A DNA stretch of 64,000 nt from Escherichia coli (GTDB taxonomy: Bacteria; Pseudomonadota; Gammaproteobacteria; Enterobacterales; Enterobacteriaceae). The translations under genes were made by a program, and so were the position numbers. The stretch is taken from NCBI RefSeq assembly GCF_048403405.1, contig NZ_CP183129.1. One strand, given 5' to 3'. Positions 5,096 to 61,324 of the stretch are shown piece by piece (position 1 is the stretch's first letter; every line of letters starts with the position of its first letter). A model generated the notes under the pieces. The model did not search any database. It was not told where the DNA came from and saw nothing but the letters and a program-made list of their open reading frames with translations.

Positions 5096-5404
5096 ATGAA
5101 GGGTCAACCAAAAGCCAGCTAAGGATTGTCTCTTTGATGACCTTACGTCTGGCTTCCAGTGCCTGGGGGAAACCATACTGATATGATAAACCAGGCCAAG
5201 CGTATGCTGGTTGATCAAATAATATCCCCCAAGCGCAGCAATATTAATATACACCTGCAATGGGTCGATATCTGGCTTAAAAATATTGTGTTTCTTCCCT
5301 TCATCCAATAAGGATTCCATTAACTGCAAGTGCGCATGATTAATTTCTAAGAGACGCTGTGATTTTGCATAATGCACACCTTTACTTTGGTTTTCACTAT
5401 GCAC
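5018..5404 (-). pseudogene. ytfA: Decayed TetR-family regulator remnant (ytfA-like); only the C-terminal effector-domain-like part is encoded
   Basis: ORF 5018..5404, 128 aa; central segment resembles TetR C-terminal domains but no HTH N-terminus is encoded, and the frame runs 78 nt into the 3-prime end of ytfB. Confidence 0.45.
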
Positions 5405-5751
5405 AATTTTTAAAAACCTGGGATTAGCAATATAATAATTCCATGTAAAATCAATAATTTCTCAATGGCACTTGTGTCTGGTTAACCTGCTGATTAACGA
5501 ACTTACCGATACCGACAGCGTAGAATAATTACATACCGCACAACAAGAATGTATGGTGTAAGGCGTTGTCAGTCATCTCCCTCCCTGGGTGCATCGTTAT
5601 ATCCGTGATGAGCGATTTTTGATATTAATATCTTTTACTATCCGCTATTTTCACCACTTCAGAAAACAAACTTATTTTTATTAATATCAACTCTTTTTCT
5701 TTGAACATTCAACTGCGATATTTGTAAAAATATTAAACAGGCAACAATAAA

Positions 5752-6546
5752 ATGACATTACCAACCACTATTTATTCATTTCCTGCATATTCACCCCGTT
5801 TTTCGTCCACCGACAAACCAGTAAAATTAAAATTTCATCAATACGCACGCGCTACATTACTTTCAAATCGTGGAAGAGACCATAATTGCGATGGCAGACA
5901 TACTGTTGAGATCCACAAACTAGATCTCTCAGACTGGCAAGCATTCAATAAGTTAGCGACGAGGTGTAATACTTACGATGGAATAACAATGAATGGTGAT
6001 AATTCTTTTGGATGGAACCATGAAGCTACATTAGATAATATTCACGCCCAGAAATACAATAAAGCTTACGCGGGTGCGAGGTTAACCGCAGAACTGAAAT
6101 ATTTATTGCAAGATGTTGAATCCTTCGAACCCAACAGTAAATACACAATACACGAGGTTGTTTTGGGACCTGGTTATAGTACTCCAGACTATACCGGCCA
6201 AACGATAGGATACGTTGTAACCCTTCCTGCCCAAATGCCTAATTGCTGGTCATCTGAACTACCAACAATCGATCTTTATATCGACCAACTTCGCACTGTT
6301 ACAGGCGTTTCTAATGCCCTCGGATTCATCATTGCTGCATTGCTAAACGCGTATTCTGATTTACCCCATGATTTGAAAATTGGTCTGCGTTCCTTATCAA
6401 GTTCAGCAGCAATCTACTCGGGTTTGGGTTTCGAGCGAGTGCCGCAGGAGCGAGACATAAGGAGTGATCGTATGCATCTAACGCCAGCAAACCATCCTGA
6501 ATTATGGACACAAGAGAATGGTGAATGGATCTACTTGCGAAACTAA
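5752..6546 (+). CDS. yjfZ: Uncharacterized protein YjfZ (DUF2686 family)
   Basis: ORF 5752..6546, 264 aa, preceded by about 350 nt of very AT-rich sequence; recognised as YjfZ, function unknown. Confidence 0.8.
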   Translation: MTLPTTIYSFPAYSPRFSSTDKPVKLKFHQYARATLLSNRGRDHNCDGRHTVEIHKLDLSDWQAFNKLATRCNTYDGITMNGDNSFGWNHEATLDNIHAQKYNKAYAGARLTAELKYLLQDVESFEPNSKYTIHEVVLGPGYSTPDYTGQTIGYVVTLPAQMPNCWSSELPTIDLYIDQLRTVTGVSNALGFIIAALLNAYSDLPHDLKIGLRSLSSSAAIYSGLGFERVPQERDIRSDRMHLTPANHPELWTQENGEWIYLRN

Positions 6547-11795: not shown

Positions 11796-13547
<1,752 letters not shown>

Positions 13548-14612
13548 ATGAGTAAAGTGAAAAGTATCACCCGTGAATCCTGGATCCTGAGCACTTTCCC
13601 GGAGTGGGGTAGCTGGCTGAATGAAGAAATTGAACAAGAGCAGGTCGCCCCTGGCACATTTGCGATGTGGTGGCTAGGCTGCACCGGGATCTGGCTGAAA
13701 TCAGAAGGTGGCACCAACGTTTGCGTTGATTTCTGGTGCGGCACTGGCAAACAAAGTCACGGTAACCCGTTAATGAAACAGGGTCACCAGATGCAGCGCA
13801 TGGCTGGCGTGAAAAAACTGCAGCCAAACCTGCGCACCACCCCGTTTGTTCTTGATCCGTTTGCGATTCGCCAGATCGACGCGGTACTGGCGACTCACGA
13901 TCACAACGATCATATCGACGTTAACGTCGCTGCTGCCGTGATGCAGAACTGTGCTGATGACGTACCGTTCATTGGACCGAAAACCTGCGTTGATTTGTGG
14001 ATTGGCTGGGGCGTACCGAAAGAGCGTTGCATCGTGGTCAAACCGGGCGATGTTGTAAAAGTGAAAGACATTGAAATTCATGCGCTTGACGCTTTCGACC
14101 GTACTGCACTGATCACCCTGCCTGCCGATCAAAAAGCGGCTGGCGTACTGCCAGATGGCATGGACGATCGCGCAGTAAACTACCTGTTCAAAACCCCTGG
14201 CGGTTCCCTGTATCACAGTGGCGATTCCCACTACTCTAACTATTATGCGAAGCACGGTAACGAACATCAGATCGATGTGGCGTTAGGATCGTACGGTGAG
14301 AACCCGCGCGGTATTACCGACAAAATGACCAGCGCCGATATGCTGCGTATGGGTGAAGCCCTGAATGCGAAAGTGGTTATCCCGTTCCACCACGACATCT
14401 GGTCAAACTTTCAGGCCGATCCGCAAGAAATCCGCGTGCTGTGGGAGATGAAAAAAGATCGTCTGAAGTATGGCTTCAAGCCGTTTATCTGGCAGGTGGG
14501 CGGCAAATTTACCTGGCCGTTGGATAAAGACAACTTCGAGTACCACTATCCGCGTGGTTTCGATGATTGCTTCACTATTGAACCGGATCTGCCGTTCAAG
14601 TCATTCCTGTAA
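13548..14612 (+). CDS. ulaG: L-ascorbate-6-phosphate lactonase UlaG (metallo-beta-lactamase fold)
   Basis: ATG at 13548 gives [10 protein letters not shown]..., 354 aa; HDHNDH metal-binding motif present. Confidence 0.9.
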
Positions 14613-22638: not shown

Positions 22639-23040
22639 TTAGAGTGAATATTCTTCTGTAATTTCAGCCAGATCCAATGCGTTATCTACCAGCGAGGTTA
22701 TCTCAAGCAGGATATCTTCAAGAGAAGATTTAAGCGATAACGCCCCGAAAACAATGTAATACTCTTCATGTTGCACGCTGGAGATCCCTACCGATGACAA
22801 CGGCATCATCTTCTGATTTCTTAATAAGAAGGTATTAAATTCATCTGGATTGCTGATACTACTTACCGGACAAATAAAGGTTTCGATAATCATTTGGCGG
22901 GAAGTAAATAGAATATTGATTTGCAAATCGCCATAATCATTCATTTTAATAATTAATGCGTTCTCGCCATTTGTTACATCAATATTTTGTTCAGGTACAG
23001 TTTGCAGCGCCGTCGCCAGCGCCAACGGATTCCATGTCAT
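22639..23040 (-). CDS. yjfI: DUF2170 protein YjfI
   Basis: ORF 22639..23040, 133 aa, acidic small protein; first gene of the cassette. Confidence 0.8.
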   Translation of the reverse strand: MTWNPLALATALQTVPEQNIDVTNGENALIIKMNDYGDLQINILFTSRQMIIETFICPVSSISNPDEFNTFLLRNQKMMPLSSVGISSVQHEEYYIVFGALSLKSSLEDILLEITSLVDNALDLAEITEEYSL

Positions 23041-23119
23041 ATATTATTCCATATAAATTAAGTTTAAATATTAATAAAATGAATATTTGCAGTACGTAAT
23101 TATCTTACCAGCTATAGAC

Positions 23120-23151
23120 AAAAAAAAACCATCCAAATCTGGATGGTTTTT
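23120..23151 (-). terminator. Strong intrinsic terminator after rlmB (A9-CCATCCA-AATC-TGGATGG-T5; symmetric, bidirectional in form)
   Basis: 7-bp stem flanked by a 9-nt A-run and a T-run; read on the minus strand it is hairpin plus U9, directly downstream of the rlmB stop. Confidence 0.65.
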
Positions 23152-23166
23152 CATAATTCAGAGGAA

Positions 23167-23898
23167 CTAGCTGCGCTGTCGCACCGCTTCAAATAAGCAA
23201 ATCCCTGTCGCCACAGAAACGTTCAGCGAAGAAACACTTCCTGCCATTGGGATGCTGATCAACTCGTCGCAATGTTCACGGGTCAGGCGACGCATACCTT
23301 CACCTTCCGCGCCCATCACCAGCGCCAGGCGTCCGGTCATTTTGCTCTGATAGAGTGTATGATCTGCCTCGCCTGCCGTACCGACGATCCAGATATTCTC
23401 TTCCTGCAACATACGCATGGTGCGCGCCAGATTAGTCACCCGAATCAGCGGAACGCTTTCTGCCGCACCACAGGCCACTTTTTTCGCCGTGGCGTTGAGC
23501 TGTGCGGAGCGATCTTTCGGCACAATCACCGCATGAACACCAGCGGCGTCCGCGCTACGCAGGCACGCGCCGAGGTTGTGCGGATCGGTTACGCCGTCGA
23601 GGATCAGCAGGAACGGTTGATCGAGCGAAGCGATCAGATCCGGCAGATCGTTTTCCTGATACTGCCGTCCTGGCTTCACACGGGCGATAATGCCCTGATG
23701 CACGGCACCGTCGCTTTTCTCGTCGAGATACTGACGGTTCGCCAACTGGATAACCACGCCCTGGGACTCAAGGGCGTGAATCAGCGGTAACAGACGTTTA
23801 TCTTCACGGCCTTTTAAAATAAAGACTTCCTGAAAACGTTCAGGGGCGCGCTCCAGCAGGGCCTGCACTGCGTGGATGCCGTAAATCATTTCGCTCAT
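23167..23898 (-). CDS. rlmB: 23S rRNA (guanosine2251-2-prime-O)-methyltransferase RlmB
   Basis: ORF 23167..23898, 243 aa, SpoU/TrmH-class methyltransferase. Confidence 0.9.
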
Positions 23899-56384: not shown

Positions 56385-56951
56385 TTACTTCACGCGAGAG
56401 ACGTATTCACCAGAGCGGGTATCCACTTTGATGACTTCGCCGATTTGTACGAACAGCGGAACTTTAACCACAGCGCCAGTAGACAGGGTAGCCGGTTTGC
56501 CGCCAGTACCTGCGGTATCACCTTTCAGGCCCGGATCGGTATCCACGATTTCCAGTTCAACGAAGTTCGGCGGAGTAACGGAGATCGGCTGACCATTCCA
56601 CAGAGTTACGATACACTCTGCCTGATCCAGCAACCATTTAGCGTTGTCGCCAATTGCTTTTGCATCAGCAGACAGTTGCTCGAAAGTTTCGTTGTTCATG
56701 AAGTGCCAGAACTCACCGTCGTTGTACAGGTAAGTCAGGTTCATATCGACAACATCAGCACCTTCAGCGGAATCAGTAGATTTGAAGGTTTTTTCTACGC
56801 GAGTACCGGTCAGCAGACGACGCAGTTTAACGCGAGCAAATGCCTGGCCTTTACCCGGTTTTACGAATTCACTCGCTTCAACCGCGTAAGGTTCGCCGTC
56901 TAACATGATTTTAAGACCAGCACGAAAATCGTTGCTATAGTACGTTGCCAT
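56385..56951 (-). CDS. efp: Translation elongation factor P
   Basis: ORF 56385..56951, 188 aa, [15 protein letters not shown]... with the modified Lys34 in the KPGKGQA loop. Confidence 0.97.
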
Positions 56952-56992: not shown

Positions 56993-58021
56993 ATGGCGCA
57001 TATTGTAACCCTAAATACCCCATCCAGAGAAGATTGGTTAACGCAACTTGCCGATGTTGTGACCGATCCTGATGAACTTCTGCGTCTTTTGAATATAGAC
57101 GCGGACGAAAAACTGTTGGCCGGACGCAGCGCCAAAAAGCTGTTTGCCCTGCGTGTGCCCCGCTCATTTATCGATCGCATGGAGAAAGGCAATCCGAACG
57201 ATCCGCTTTTGCGTCAGGTAATTACCTCGCAAGATGAGTTTGTCGTCGCGCCCGGATTCTCCACCGACCCGCTGGAAGAACAGCACAGCGTAGTGCCAGG
57301 TTTGTTGCATAAATACCACAACCGGGCGCTTTTGCTGGTCAAAGGCGGCTGCGCGGTAAATTGCCGCTATTGCTTCCGTCGCCACTTCCCCTATGCCGAA
57401 AATCAGGGCAACAAGCGTAACTGGCAAACTGCACTTGAGTATGTTGCTGCGCATCCGGAACTGGACGAGATGATTTTCTCCGGCGGCGATCCGCTGATGG
57501 CGAAAGATCACGAGCTGGACTGGTTGCTCACACAACTGGAAGCCATCCCGCATATCAAACGTCTGCGGATTCACAGCCGTCTGCCGATTGTGATCCCGGC
57601 ACGCATCACAGATGCGCTGGTTGAACGCTTTTCACATTCTACGCTGCAAATCTTGCTGGTGAATCACATCAACCATGCCAATGAGATAGATGAAACATTC
57701 CGTCAGGCGATGGCTAAGTTGCGCCGGGTCGGCGTTACTTTGCTCAACCAGAGCGTTCTGTTACGTGGCGTGAACGATAACGCGCAAACGCTGGCAAACC
57801 TGAGTAATGCGTTGTTCGATGCCGGCGTGATGCCGTATTACCTGCATGTGCTCGATAAAGTACAGGGCGCGGCGCATTTTATGGTGAGTGATGACGAAGC
57901 ACGGCAGATTATGCGTGAGTTGCTGACACTGGTGTCGGGATATCTGGTGCCTAAACTGGCGCGAGAAATTGGCGGCGAACCCAGCAAAACGCCGCTGGAT
58001 CTCCAGCTACGCCAGCAGTAA
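56993..58021 (+). CDS. epmB: EF-P beta-lysylation lysine 2,3-aminomutase EpmB
   Basis: ORF 56993..58021, 342 aa, radical-SAM CxxxCxxC (CAVNCRYC) motif; divergent from efp. Confidence 0.9.
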   Translation: MAHIVTLNTPSREDWLTQLADVVTDPDELLRLLNIDADEKLLAGRSAKKLFALRVPRSFIDRMEKGNPNDPLLRQVITSQDEFVVAPGFSTDPLEEQHSVVPGLLHKYHNRALLLVKGGCAVNCRYCFRRHFPYAENQGNKRNWQTALEYVAAHPELDEMIFSGGDPLMAKDHELDWLLTQLEAIPHIKRLRIHSRLPIVIPARITDALVERFSHSTLQILLVNHINHANEIDETFRQAMAKLRRVGVTLLNQSVLLRGVNDNAQTLANLSNALFDAGVMPYYLHVLDKVQGAAHFMVSDDEARQIMRELLTLVSGYLVPKLAREIGGEPSKTPLDLQLRQQ

Positions 58022-58255
58022 CTGATTAAACAGGGAAGTTTAATCTTTACACGTTGCATTACCTTTAATTATTCATATATATTGTTGTTATTACTTTTTA
58101 TATAACCAACACCAATAATTAACCTTTCTTTTCTGTTTATATAGAGTGAGCACGGCTATTTATGTTATTTTAACAACTATTACTACCAAGCCCATTTATC
58201 TGGCTTATAAATTAAAATTAATTATTTAATTGAGAAATGGTTAGGGAGAACCTAC

Positions 58256-59125
58256 ATGGCCATAAGCATCAAGGGTGTTAATACCGGTGTTATTCGCAAG
58301 AGCAATAATTTCATTGCACTGGCGTTGAAAATTAAAGAGCCTCGCAATAAAGAATCGTTGTTCTTTCTGTCTGTCATGGAACTGCGCGACCTTCTGATTG
58401 CGCTGGAAAGCCGTTTGCATCAAAAGCATAAACTGGATGCTGCTGCACGCCTTCAGTATGAGCAAGCTCGCGATAAAGTCATTAAGAAAATGGCAGAAAA
58501 TATCCCAGAAATTCTGGTTGATGAGCTTAAAAATGCCGATATTAATCGTCGGGTTAACACGCTGGAACTTACCGATAATCAGGGTGAAAATCTTACCTTC
58601 GTATTAACGCTACATGACGGTAGCAAATGTGAGTTAGTCATCAATGAATTGCAGATTGAAATGCTGGCGCGAGCAATCATTCATGCAATTAATAATGCGG
58701 AAATGCGTGAACTGGCATTACGTATTACCTCACTGTTAGATTTCCTGCCGTTATACGACGTTGACTGCCAGGACAATGGCAATCTGGAATATGACACCTA
58801 TTCCCAACCGGAATGGAAACATAACTTGTTCAACCATTATCTGGCGGTGCTTTACCGCTTTAAAGATGAAAGTGGCAAAGAACAATTTAGCGGCGCAGTG
58901 GTGAAAACGCGTGAAGCAACGCCGGGTAAAGAAGTGGAGGCGATCACTCGCCGAATGCTTGATTTCAGCCCACGACTGAAAAAACTCGCGGGTGTACCAT
59001 GTCAGGTCTATGTTCGCACCGTAGCGGCAAATAACGCCCAACCGCTAACCCAGGATCAATGCTTACGCGCGCTACATCACTTACGTGTTCAATCCACCAG
59101 CAAAACTGCACCACAGGCGAAATAA
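58256..59125 (+). CDS. yjeJ: Uncharacterized protein YjeJ
   Basis: ORF 58256..59125, 289 aa, AT-rich gene with a very AT-rich upstream region; function unknown. Confidence 0.8.
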   Translation: MAISIKGVNTGVIRKSNNFIALALKIKEPRNKESLFFLSVMELRDLLIALESRLHQKHKLDAAARLQYEQARDKVIKKMAENIPEILVDELKNADINRRVNTLELTDNQGENLTFVLTLHDGSKCELVINELQIEMLARAIIHAINNAEMRELALRITSLLDFLPLYDVDCQDNGNLEYDTYSQPEWKHNLFNHYLAVLYRFKDESGKEQFSGAVVKTREATPGKEVEAITRRMLDFSPRLKKLAGVPCQVYVRTVAANNAQPLTQDQCLRALHHLRVQSTSKTAPQAK

Positions 59126-59174
59126 TCCCATCTGTTTTACTACGAGGCTGGAAGTATCCAGCCTCTGGATCCCA

Positions 59175-59528
59175 TCAGTTCGGGCACTTATATACCTGGC
59201 CGATAATCTGGCTATCCGTCGGGACAAAACTGGACAACATCCCCTGCGACGGGCTGCTGATGCCATAAATCACGTTACCGCCCATTGCAGCCGCCTGGTT
59301 GCGCAGATCGTTTGCTGCGCCGCGCATAGAACCGCCCTCTTCACCGTGTTGCCCGGAAAGCCAGTTGCTTTGCTTACCTGTCGCAGTACCAATCAGCTGG
59401 CACTCTGCGCCTGGCTGCTCGTCCACAATGCGTACACTCTGACCGGCAGCACTCAATTCGTTGCTGGAGCTACAACCCGCCATCAGTAGCGCGGCACCGA
59501 CAATCCCTGCTAAGTATTTTACGTGCAT
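59175..59528 (-). CDS. yjeI: DUF4156 lipoprotein YjeI
   Basis: Track ORF to 59561; ATG at 59528 gives MHVKYLAGIVGAALLMAGCSSS... with a lipobox, 117 aa. Confidence 0.8.
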   Translation of the reverse strand: MHVKYLAGIVGAALLMAGCSSSNELSAAGQSVRIVDEQPGAECQLIGTATGKQSNWLSGQHGEEGGSMRGAANDLRNQAAAMGGNVIYGISSPSQGMLSSFVPTDSQIIGQVYKCPN

Positions 59529-59602
59529 GTTATTCCCCATAATCAATGAGCTGGACGCCACTCGCGTCGTCCGTGTCTGAATCTTATACTAGAAAGATGA
59601 CC

Positions 59603-59638
59603 AAAAGAAAAACCCCCAGACATTTCTGCCCGGGGGTT
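59603..59638 (-). terminator. Intrinsic terminator downstream of groL
   Basis: On the minus strand: CCCCC(GGG)CAG-AAATGT-CTGGGGG bulged hairpin followed by UUUUUCUUUU. Confidence 0.6.
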
Positions 59639-59665
59639 TGTTTATTTCTGCGAGGTGCAGGGCAA

Positions 59666-61324
<1,659 letters not shown>

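Follow-up and report, generated by a model that had tools for sequence, protein, structure and literature searches.

The question raised by this locus is what the most AT-rich stretch of a 64,000-nucleotide segment of an Escherichia coli chromosome (contig NZ_CP183129.1; the whole segment is called the window below) is for, and what is done by the gene that follows it. The stretch is the 234-bp spacer between epmB and yjeJ (58022-58255, + strand), read here as the promoter region and 5' untranslated leader of yjeJ. The gene, yjeJ (58256-59125, + strand, 289 aa), is a K-12 'y-gene' without assigned function although it is found in essentially every E. coli genome. The first-pass annotation had taken the spacer for a curved 230-nt leader that subjects an inserted yjeJ-yjeI pair to silencing, and the comparisons described below point elsewhere. 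We are fairly confident that the spacer represents an extended -10 promoter and a short, unstructured leader of a stand-alone, expressed yjeJ, and moderately confident, judging from gene neighbourhoods in related genera, that yjeJ is an orphan whose relatives elsewhere close the class II microcin export operons found in the same interval. For the protein itself an immunity-like or accessory role is hypothesized. Taken jointly, these three parts have in our estimation about an even chance of being right.

The AT-richness ahead of yjeJ is real, as the first-pass annotation had noted. The spacer has a GC content of 26.9% against 51.7% for the whole window and is the lowest 234 bp in it; of the 234-bp windows that can be drawn from the 64 kb, just 0.03% are equally low, every one of them at the yjeJ locus. 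It contains 12 uninterrupted A/T runs of at least 6 bases (the longest, 27 bases, at 58205-58231) and 35 TpA steps. The low GC continues into the gene, with 37.6% over 58022-58800, a stretch that takes in the spacer and 545 bp from the start of yjeJ. For yjeJ as a whole the GC content is 44.9% and that of third codon positions (GC3) 44.8%, compared with 53% and 59.8% for epmB, and yjeI stands at 56.5% GC. The spacer was found in 5405/5426 E. coli genomes, mostly at 95-99% identity, and its AT-richness is specific to the Escherichia-Citrobacter-Kluyvera group. Low GC in the spacer and in the first half of yjeJ thus appears to be a lineage-specific, foreign-like trait and not the conserved feature of the locus.

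What is conserved became apparent from an alignment of the 200 nt 5' of yjeJ at 24 loci from nine genera, in which two blocks only are shared across genera upstream of stand-alone yjeJ. One of them, T[AG]TG[TC]TATTTTA[AC]C, has the form of an extended -10 promoter; its core TGtTATTTT lies at 58163-58171 on the + strand of the window, with the TG at 58163-58164 and the -10 hexamer TATTTT at 58166-58171. The other is a ribosome-binding block, ATGGTTAGGGAGAACC (58237-58252, + strand), which contains the Shine-Dalgarno sequence GGGAG and is nearly invariant in Escherichia, Citrobacter, Pseudocitrobacter, Superficieibacter and Kluyvera. A single TGnTATTTT occurs within 160 nt upstream at 35 of 43 stand-alone yjeJ loci, where 0.65 would be expected, although these loci are related by descent and are therefore not 35 independent events. 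The element persists where the remaining spacer cannot be aligned, and at loci whose upstream 160 nt have 51-56% GC it is located 36-56 nt from the ATG. In its poor -35 region, its conservation across genera and its fixed distance class from the start codon, it resembles the extended -10 (TGn) class of sigma-70 promoters.

From the position of this conserved element, transcription of yjeJ would start near 58178, leaving an AT-rich leader of ~78 nt (58178-58255, + strand) without stable structure, and not one of 230 nt. The fold of 58178-58275 is no better than those of shuffled sequences (z = +0.19) and the spacer has no Rfam match at E ≤ 1, and a riboswitch or other structured cis-regulatory leader was rejected on these two results. 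Most of the 234 bp is probably promoter and upstream DNA: the spacer would run from the 3' end region of epmB through the yjeJ promoter into a short, unstructured 5' untranslated region, with no long regulatory leader. A different promoter has been assigned to the same spacer in the literature. Genomic SELEX (systematic evolution of ligands by exponential enrichment) with sigma-70 holoenzyme alone gave a peak there (PMC3946193, Fig. 3e), and the 'constitutive' promoter called from it is the pair TTAACC-17-TAGAGT at 58119-58147 on the + strand (Table 2 and Fig. 3e of that study), another hexamer pair 20 bp upstream of ours. This pair is conserved within Escherichia only, but it may be the yjeJ promoter instead of the element at 58163-58171. 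An open reading frame (ORF) of 27 hydrophobic codons with a GTG start also lies inside the spacer (58146-58229, + strand); its start codon precedes both candidate sites of transcription initiation, which makes expression improbable.

Turning to the gene, YjeJ matches the Pfam family PF15922 over its full length (E = 2.1e-174, 579 bits against a cut-off of 27, residues 1-283 of 283 profile positions), and NCBIfam holds no model for it. Among 1.84 billion proteins the family forms 99 clusters at 50% identity, all from Enterobacterales. The gene is present in 5424/5426 complete E. coli genomes (99.96%), with at least 80% coverage in 5393. Scanning a single genome for each species with one peptide motif, which leaves the species list incomplete, we obtained 44 loci. 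The order efp-epmB-yjeJ-yjeI-groL-groS-yjeH is found in Escherichia, Citrobacter, Pseudocitrobacter, Kluyvera, Superficieibacter and Salmonella, and also in Trabulsiella, Yokenella, Kosakonia, Phytobacter, Pluralibacter and Atlantibacter, so that synteny is held in at least 12 genera. Given this and its near-universal presence in E. coli, yjeJ is no recent insertion, and the earlier description of a pair inserted between epmB and the groESL genes is not supported for either member, yjeI being a conserved gene of normal composition that occurs independently of yjeJ.

The distribution is nevertheless not uniform. The interval between epmB and yjeI is empty in Enterobacter, holds a stand-alone yjeJ in the Escherichia-like genera, and holds a multi-gene cassette together with yjeJ in Klebsiella, Leclercia and Entomohabitans; yjeJ is thus variable at the family level, yet ancient and fixed in E. 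coli. Its protein is only 34-45% identical where EpmB is 86-88% and GroL 97% identical. The ratio of nonsynonymous to synonymous substitution rates (dN/dS) is 0.04-0.11, with dN and dS each 2-4 times those of epmB and yjeI, and yjeJ is accordingly a fast-evolving gene under purifying selection. In its low GC, its restriction to Enterobacterales, its absence from Enterobacter and its faster evolution than its neighbours, the gene is foreign-like. The suspicion that it is xenogeneic therefore stands as far as composition and family range are concerned, and falls where recent acquisition is meant.

Several loci depart from the common arrangement. In Salmonella enterica subsp. diarizonae (L027 in our numbering of loci, ~4001) an ATA occupies the position of the yjeJ start codon, and in subsp. 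arizonae (L039, 4225-4833) the match starts only near residue 75; both may be pseudogenes. About 2.1 kb of extra DNA separates yjeJ from yjeI in Kosakonia sp. S29 and Phytobacter (L033, L035, L046), and ~2 kb separates epmB from yjeJ in Citrobacter youngae (L011). Three records from outside the order are probably contaminated or mislabelled, namely a 1.4-kb contig under 'Bacillus coahuilensis' carrying an Enterobacteriaceae-type yjeJ only (L004), a 'Bacteroidales' metagenome-assembled genome with yjeJ-yjeI (L016) and 'Chryseobacterium sp. 18061' with the full efp-to-yjeH order (L042). Apparent phage matches to YjeJ were discarded as mislabelled bacterial contigs, and several 'plasmid' records were found to be chromosomes or bacterial contigs. 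YjeJ-family genes are carried by Serratia MOBP plasmids of 46-57 kb (L049, 6989-7846; L050, 6983-7840), at 25-26% identity. There the gene adjoins one for a conserved 101-aa protein and has genes for a tyrosine recombinase, an SprT-like protein, ArdR, a phosphoribosyltransferase, H-NS, Hha and a topoisomerase as neighbours. The small upstream protein on these plasmids was considered as a microcin precursor and dismissed, as it is not microcin-like.

The relatives that give yjeJ a context are more divergent homologues (24-38% identity), which form the last gene of an operon encoding, in this order, a precursor peptide, a membrane fusion protein (MFP), a peptidase-containing ATP-binding cassette transporter (PCAT) and YjeJ. 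The precursor (111-124 aa) has a double-glycine-type leader, MKxLSxxEMxxVSG[GA], followed by a glycine-rich hydrophobic core, and gives consistent sub-threshold matches to MccV, Bacteriocin_IIc and DUF5862. The MFP is of the HlyD type (~428 aa), the PCAT is a C39-peptidase ATP-binding cassette (ABC) exporter (~705 aa), and at the loci read base by base yjeJ starts 13-28 bp after the exporter gene. Such cassettes were found in Budvicia (L045), Klebsiella pneumoniae (L048 and L051, one record), Kosakonia radicincitans (L053), Raoultella ornithinolytica (L054), Entomohabitans (L055), Leclercia (L059) and three enterobacterial contigs (L056-L058), and MFP and PCAT genes stand beside a YjeJ homologue at nine loci of other taxa. 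The Klebsiella precursor homologue lies away from the operon, adjoining groEL; elsewhere the precursor gene directly precedes the MFP gene. In Entomohabitans teleogrylli (L055, 789-2362), three microcin-like precursor genes stand in tandem upstream of MFP-PCAT-yjeJ; they encode 86, 111 and 68 aa and share an almost identical leader, MKELTVxEMEEIAGG.

This organization resembles that of class II microcin clusters such as microcin V, which consists of the precursor CvaC, the immunity protein Cvi, the MFP CvaA and the C39-peptidase ABC exporter CvaB: the YjeJ homologues of related genera are co-oriented with a CvaB-like PCAT and a CvaA-like MFP, at loci that encode precursors with double-glycine leaders. 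Putative microcins have been reported from nearly all assemblies of several Klebsiella-clade species including K. pneumoniae, from at least some Raoultella assemblies, and from most assemblies of Kosakonia radicincitans and Kosakonia oryzae (Cole et al. 2022, PMC9746304).

In several genomes the cassette is found at the chromosomal address of yjeJ itself. In one enterobacterial contig (L058) the order is epmB, a winged helix-turn-helix regulator, precursor, MFP, PCAT and yjeJ, converging on yjeI. The Entomohabitans and Leclercia loci show PCAT-yjeJ converging on yjeI, followed by groL-groS-yjeH, and Klebsiella has the same convergent arrangement with an added fimbrial operon. The cassette takes the place of the AT-rich spacer between epmB and yjeI in Klebsiella, Entomohabitans and L058; the Leclercia locus ends at the precursor gene. 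A further contig (L057) contains a copy of the cassette, a GerE-type regulator and then a second, stand-alone yjeJ, which has the element TGCTATTTT and converges on yjeI. In a neighbour-joining tree this second copy (L057b) joins every other stand-alone yjeJ in one clade, with the cassette and Serratia plasmid clades outside.

The window itself contains no precursor, MFP or PCAT gene detectable by tblastn (for the precursor, the queries were two cassette precursors), and the small ORFs of the spacer encode 14-27 aa only, none with a double-glycine leader. The locus is not a microcin cluster. We propose instead that yjeJ represents the stand-alone branch of a fast-evolving family whose other branches end class II microcin-type operons, and that E. 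coli and its relatives would have kept only the orphan, fixed in the species and under its own promoter.

The protein offers few direct clues to its function. E. coli YjeJ is soluble and basic (isoelectric point, pI, 8.6) and has no transmembrane segment, the maximum 19-residue hydropathy being 1.25. The structure prediction called for by the first-pass annotation gave a confident AlphaFold2 model (predicted local distance difference test score, pLDDT, 93.3; predicted template-modelling score, pTM, 0.88) composed of repeated beta-sheet-plus-helix units. No sequence match in the Protein Data Bank (PDB) and no Pfam match other than PF15922 at E ≤ 0.1 was obtained, PADLOC and PHROGs returned nothing, and Foldseek gave nothing significant against the PDB and BFVD. 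Charge divides the family, as judged from the proteins of L003-L058: the cassette and plasmid proteins are acidic (pI 5.0-6.1, net charge -5 to -11), whereas most stand-alone proteins are basic (pI 7.7-9.5) and three fall near pI 6.3-6.5.

Based on its genomic association, we hypothesize that YjeJ works inside the cytoplasm, where it would either protect producers from their own glycine-rich exported microcins (an immunity-like role) or be an accessory to these peptides, and that the orphan may have been kept because it still protects against, or interacts with, the microcins of neighbouring bacteria. Three observations fit an immunity-like role. YjeJ is the most divergent part of the cassette, with a mean identity of 29% compared with 49% for the precursor, 63% for the MFP and 73% for the PCAT; the cassette loci have no conserved small membrane ORF, as a candidate for a canonical immunity gene, beside the precursor gene or after yjeJ; and the orphan is under selection in genomes that lack the exporter. 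The gene further resembles the orphan immunity genes of bacteriocin and polymorphic-toxin systems in being fast-evolving and without toxin or export partners while the full system is present at the same locus elsewhere. A bolder version, tentative and in our view rather doubtful, holds that a widespread group of class II microcin systems has a fifth component which has so far escaped notice, namely the YjeJ family, whose large and hyper-variable proteins would work in soluble form in the cytoplasm for self-protection or as an aid to export, and that the E. coli orphan permanently protects the species from the glycine-rich microcins of Klebsiella-clade neighbours in the gut. A component of this kind is excluded from microcin mining by design, since the published pipeline cinful drops immunity candidates longer than 250 aa (PMC9746304), and no mention of YjeJ was found in the microcin papers searched, PMC9746304 and PMC12219008 among them. 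The finding that relatives of yjeJ belong to microcin export operons at its own chromosomal position is new; it provides a first testable functional context for the gene, and a hypothesis on bacterial competition in the gut.

A number of results weigh against this account and in particular against immunity in the strict sense. The immunity proteins described so far for class II microcins are small and reside in the membrane (PMC9746304, PMC12219008); the class is defined by 51-216 aa and an inner-membrane location, whereas YjeJ has 289 aa and no hydrophobic segment, and the family as a whole, at 275-292 aa and soluble, is unlike these known proteins. The cassette yjeJ follows the exporter gene and does not adjoin the precursor gene. 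Its divergence likewise tracks that of the exporter genes (rho 0.85-0.88) and not that of the precursor (rho -0.2), although the associated p-values are overstated, as the pairs depend on one another. YjeJ thus shows no co-evolution with the precursor, and a cognate toxin-immunity pair is poorly supported; this tracking of exporter divergence, the change of pI from acidic to basic and the putative status of immunity itself also set yjeJ apart from orphan immunity genes. The same change of pI implies that the orphan may have altered its function. An AlphaFold2 fusion of YjeJ, a linker and the precursor gave no confident complex, with a precursor pLDDT of 30-50 from a 7-sequence alignment. As to history, the tree carries no support values. 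Neither the window nor any stand-alone locus yielded tblastn traces of a precursor, MFP or PCAT gene (E ≤ 1e-3), so that the proposed loss of the cassette is deduced from position instead of from remnants, and it is just as possible that cassettes were inserted separately next to a yjeJ already in place. The neighbours of the Serratia plasmid homologues, finally, fit a nucleic-acid-related role better.

Three other explanations of the locus were weighed against the promoter-and-orphan account. The one behind the first-pass annotation, that an AT-rich, curved spacer nucleates H-NS/StpA filaments and keeps an acquired yjeJ silent except under counter-silencing, is a serious possibility but an unlikely one. 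The low GC of the spacer and of the adjoining half of yjeJ, together with the TpA steps, is what would be expected of such a site, and in its low GC, narrow taxonomic range and plasmid-borne relatives, as well as its absence from Enterobacter, yjeJ is like H-NS-silenced genes that E. coli acquired horizontally; its listing as Nac-regulated and its decrease in prolonged nitrogen starvation (PMC7417836) indicate some conditional control, although the single match to a Nac-like ATA-N9-TAT in the spacer is at chance level. However, the helical phasing of AA/TT in the spacer (power 0.82) does not differ from the mean of dinucleotide-preserving shuffles (0.72, p = 0.33). This absence of A-tract phasing gives no sign of curvature, and curved DNA was rejected on it. 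The high-affinity H-NS motifs TCGATAAATT and TCGATATATT have no match in the spacer within 2 mismatches. The spacer is not flagged for any of 987 H-NS SELEX sites in a table that does flag the nearby cadB, adiA and yjcF spacers (PMC3946193), while RNA polymerase needs no helper to bind it. In MG1655 grown in lysogeny broth (LB), both the mRNA and the protein of yjeJ were quantified (PMC9508795), a result with which complete silencing does not fit; partial binding of H-NS at the spacer is possible. Orthologous spacers of 45-57% GC in several genera retain the same promoter element, so AT-richness is unnecessary for the control of yjeJ. Unlike silenced genes, then, yjeJ belongs to the E. coli core, is syntenic across genera and is expressed in LB. 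As the gene is ancient at this locus and the conserved part is a small promoter element, an AT-rich spacer and a low-GC gene should not alone be taken in annotation as proof of recent acquisition or of H-NS silencing.

The second explanation is that YjeJ is a single-stranded nucleic-acid-binding protein of the PUR or Whirly kind (Pur-alpha, MRP1/2, plant Whirly), acting as a regulator, a nucleoid-associated protein or in plasmid establishment, and that its linkage to exporters is incidental or regulatory. PUR-alpha entries do have the highest Foldseek probability (0.54-0.82), the model is built of repeated beta-sheet-plus-helix units, the stand-alone proteins are basic, and the neighbours of the Serratia plasmid homologue include ArdR, SprT-like, H-NS, Hha and topoisomerase genes. 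The Foldseek hits have an E-value of about 0.07 and are not significant, however, sequence similarity to PUR proteins is found in neither the PDB nor Pfam, hhalign detects no internal repeats, the cassette and plasmid proteins are acidic, and a tight operon linkage with exporters in at least seven genera is hard to call incidental. We consider this explanation distinctly improbable. Still less can be said for the view that nothing here is special, the spacer being a compositionally extreme but ordinary promoter region and yjeJ a lineage-restricted gene with a minor, unrelated function, which we regard as very improbable. In its favour, E. coli promoter regions are generally AT-rich, and conservation here is limited to the -10 element and the Shine-Dalgarno block; moreover, a yjeJ deletion serves as a neutral linked marker for transduction (PMC10679819). 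It has to contend with a spacer that is the lowest in GC of the 64 kb, with a gene retained under purifying selection by all but two of the complete E. coli genomes, and with a family repeatedly linked in operons to microcin exporters at the yjeJ locus itself. The finding was ordinary as first stated; it is the comparative result that makes the function of a core y-gene directly testable.

A separate SELEX study placed a peak of RpoH holoenzyme within the yjeJ coding region (K-12 coordinate 4371850, PMC5493296).

The gene on the far side of yjeJ is yjeI (59175-59528, - strand), which encodes a 117-aa lipoprotein of the DUF4156 family (PF13698; E = 1.7e-33, 115.3 bits against a cut-off of 28.9), the translated N-terminus ...AALLMAGCSSS carrying a lipobox with its cysteine (LMAG|C). 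It is 77-91% identical across Enterobacteriaceae and its mRNA is abundant in MG1655 (about 200-460 fragments per kilobase per million, FPKM; PMC9508795). In Enterobacter chuandaensis (L060, 5001-6448), where yjeJ is absent, yjeI converges directly on epmB at a distance of 65 bp. This locus also has three extra genes between groL and yjeI, for an amidohydrolase and two Gate-domain proteins, and its gene content shows that the groL-epmB interval varies at the family level. Its conservation across Enterobacteriaceae, also in a genome that lacks yjeJ, marks yjeI as a resident gene, transcribed separately and normal in GC content. The placement of both genes behind the AT-rich stretch holds for yjeJ and not for yjeI, which lies on the other strand and is transcribed from the groL side.

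The convergence of yjeJ on yjeI across a hairpin was confirmed at the exact coordinates. The 49-bp spacer between the two genes contains a 9-bp GC-rich hairpin, GAGGCTGGA-AGTA-TCCAGCCTC, at 59144-59165 on both strands, with a folding energy of -18.3 kcal/mol on the + strand (z = -3.7 against shuffles) and -18.4 kcal/mol on the - strand (z = -2.8). Its stem is kept in K-12 and O157 and its loop differs. No U-tract follows on either strand and the terminator scan made no call, and for want of a U-run the hairpin is not a canonical intrinsic terminator. The scan did call one for groL (59610-59639, - strand; a 13-bp stem and T-run), between groSL and yjeI. At the other end of the locus, directly 3' of the epmB stop codon, lies a weak AT-rich hairpin, TTAAAC-AGGGAA-GTTTAA (58026-58043, + strand; up to 8 bp if extended), followed by TCTTTAC. 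The fold of 58010-58070 reaches -12 kcal/mol (z = -1.9), and this hairpin, without a call in the terminator scan, is a possible weak epmB terminator.

The remaining genes of the syntenic block are efp (56385-56951, - strand), epmB (56993-58021, + strand) and groL (59666-61312, - strand), with groS beyond it on the same strand. The window is oriented in reverse to K-12, and its positions 57950-59600 are 100% identical to E. coli strain TUM14771. K-12-like strains have a 160-bp insert of repetitive extragenic palindromic (REP) sequence, or bacterial interspersed mosaic element (BIME), directly after the epmB stop codon (58021/58022), with ~28 bp of flank imperfectly duplicated, and a second REP insert of 143 bp between the hairpin and yjeI (59165-59175); O157 has the second one only and the strain of the window neither. 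The yjeJ/epmB spacer of K-12 has been described as a recurrent boundary of ampC amplicons (PMC12625342). Elsewhere in the window, further low-GC patches occur at 5237-5907, 13222-13598 and 22849-23174, with minima of 28.6-30.3% GC per 234 bp.

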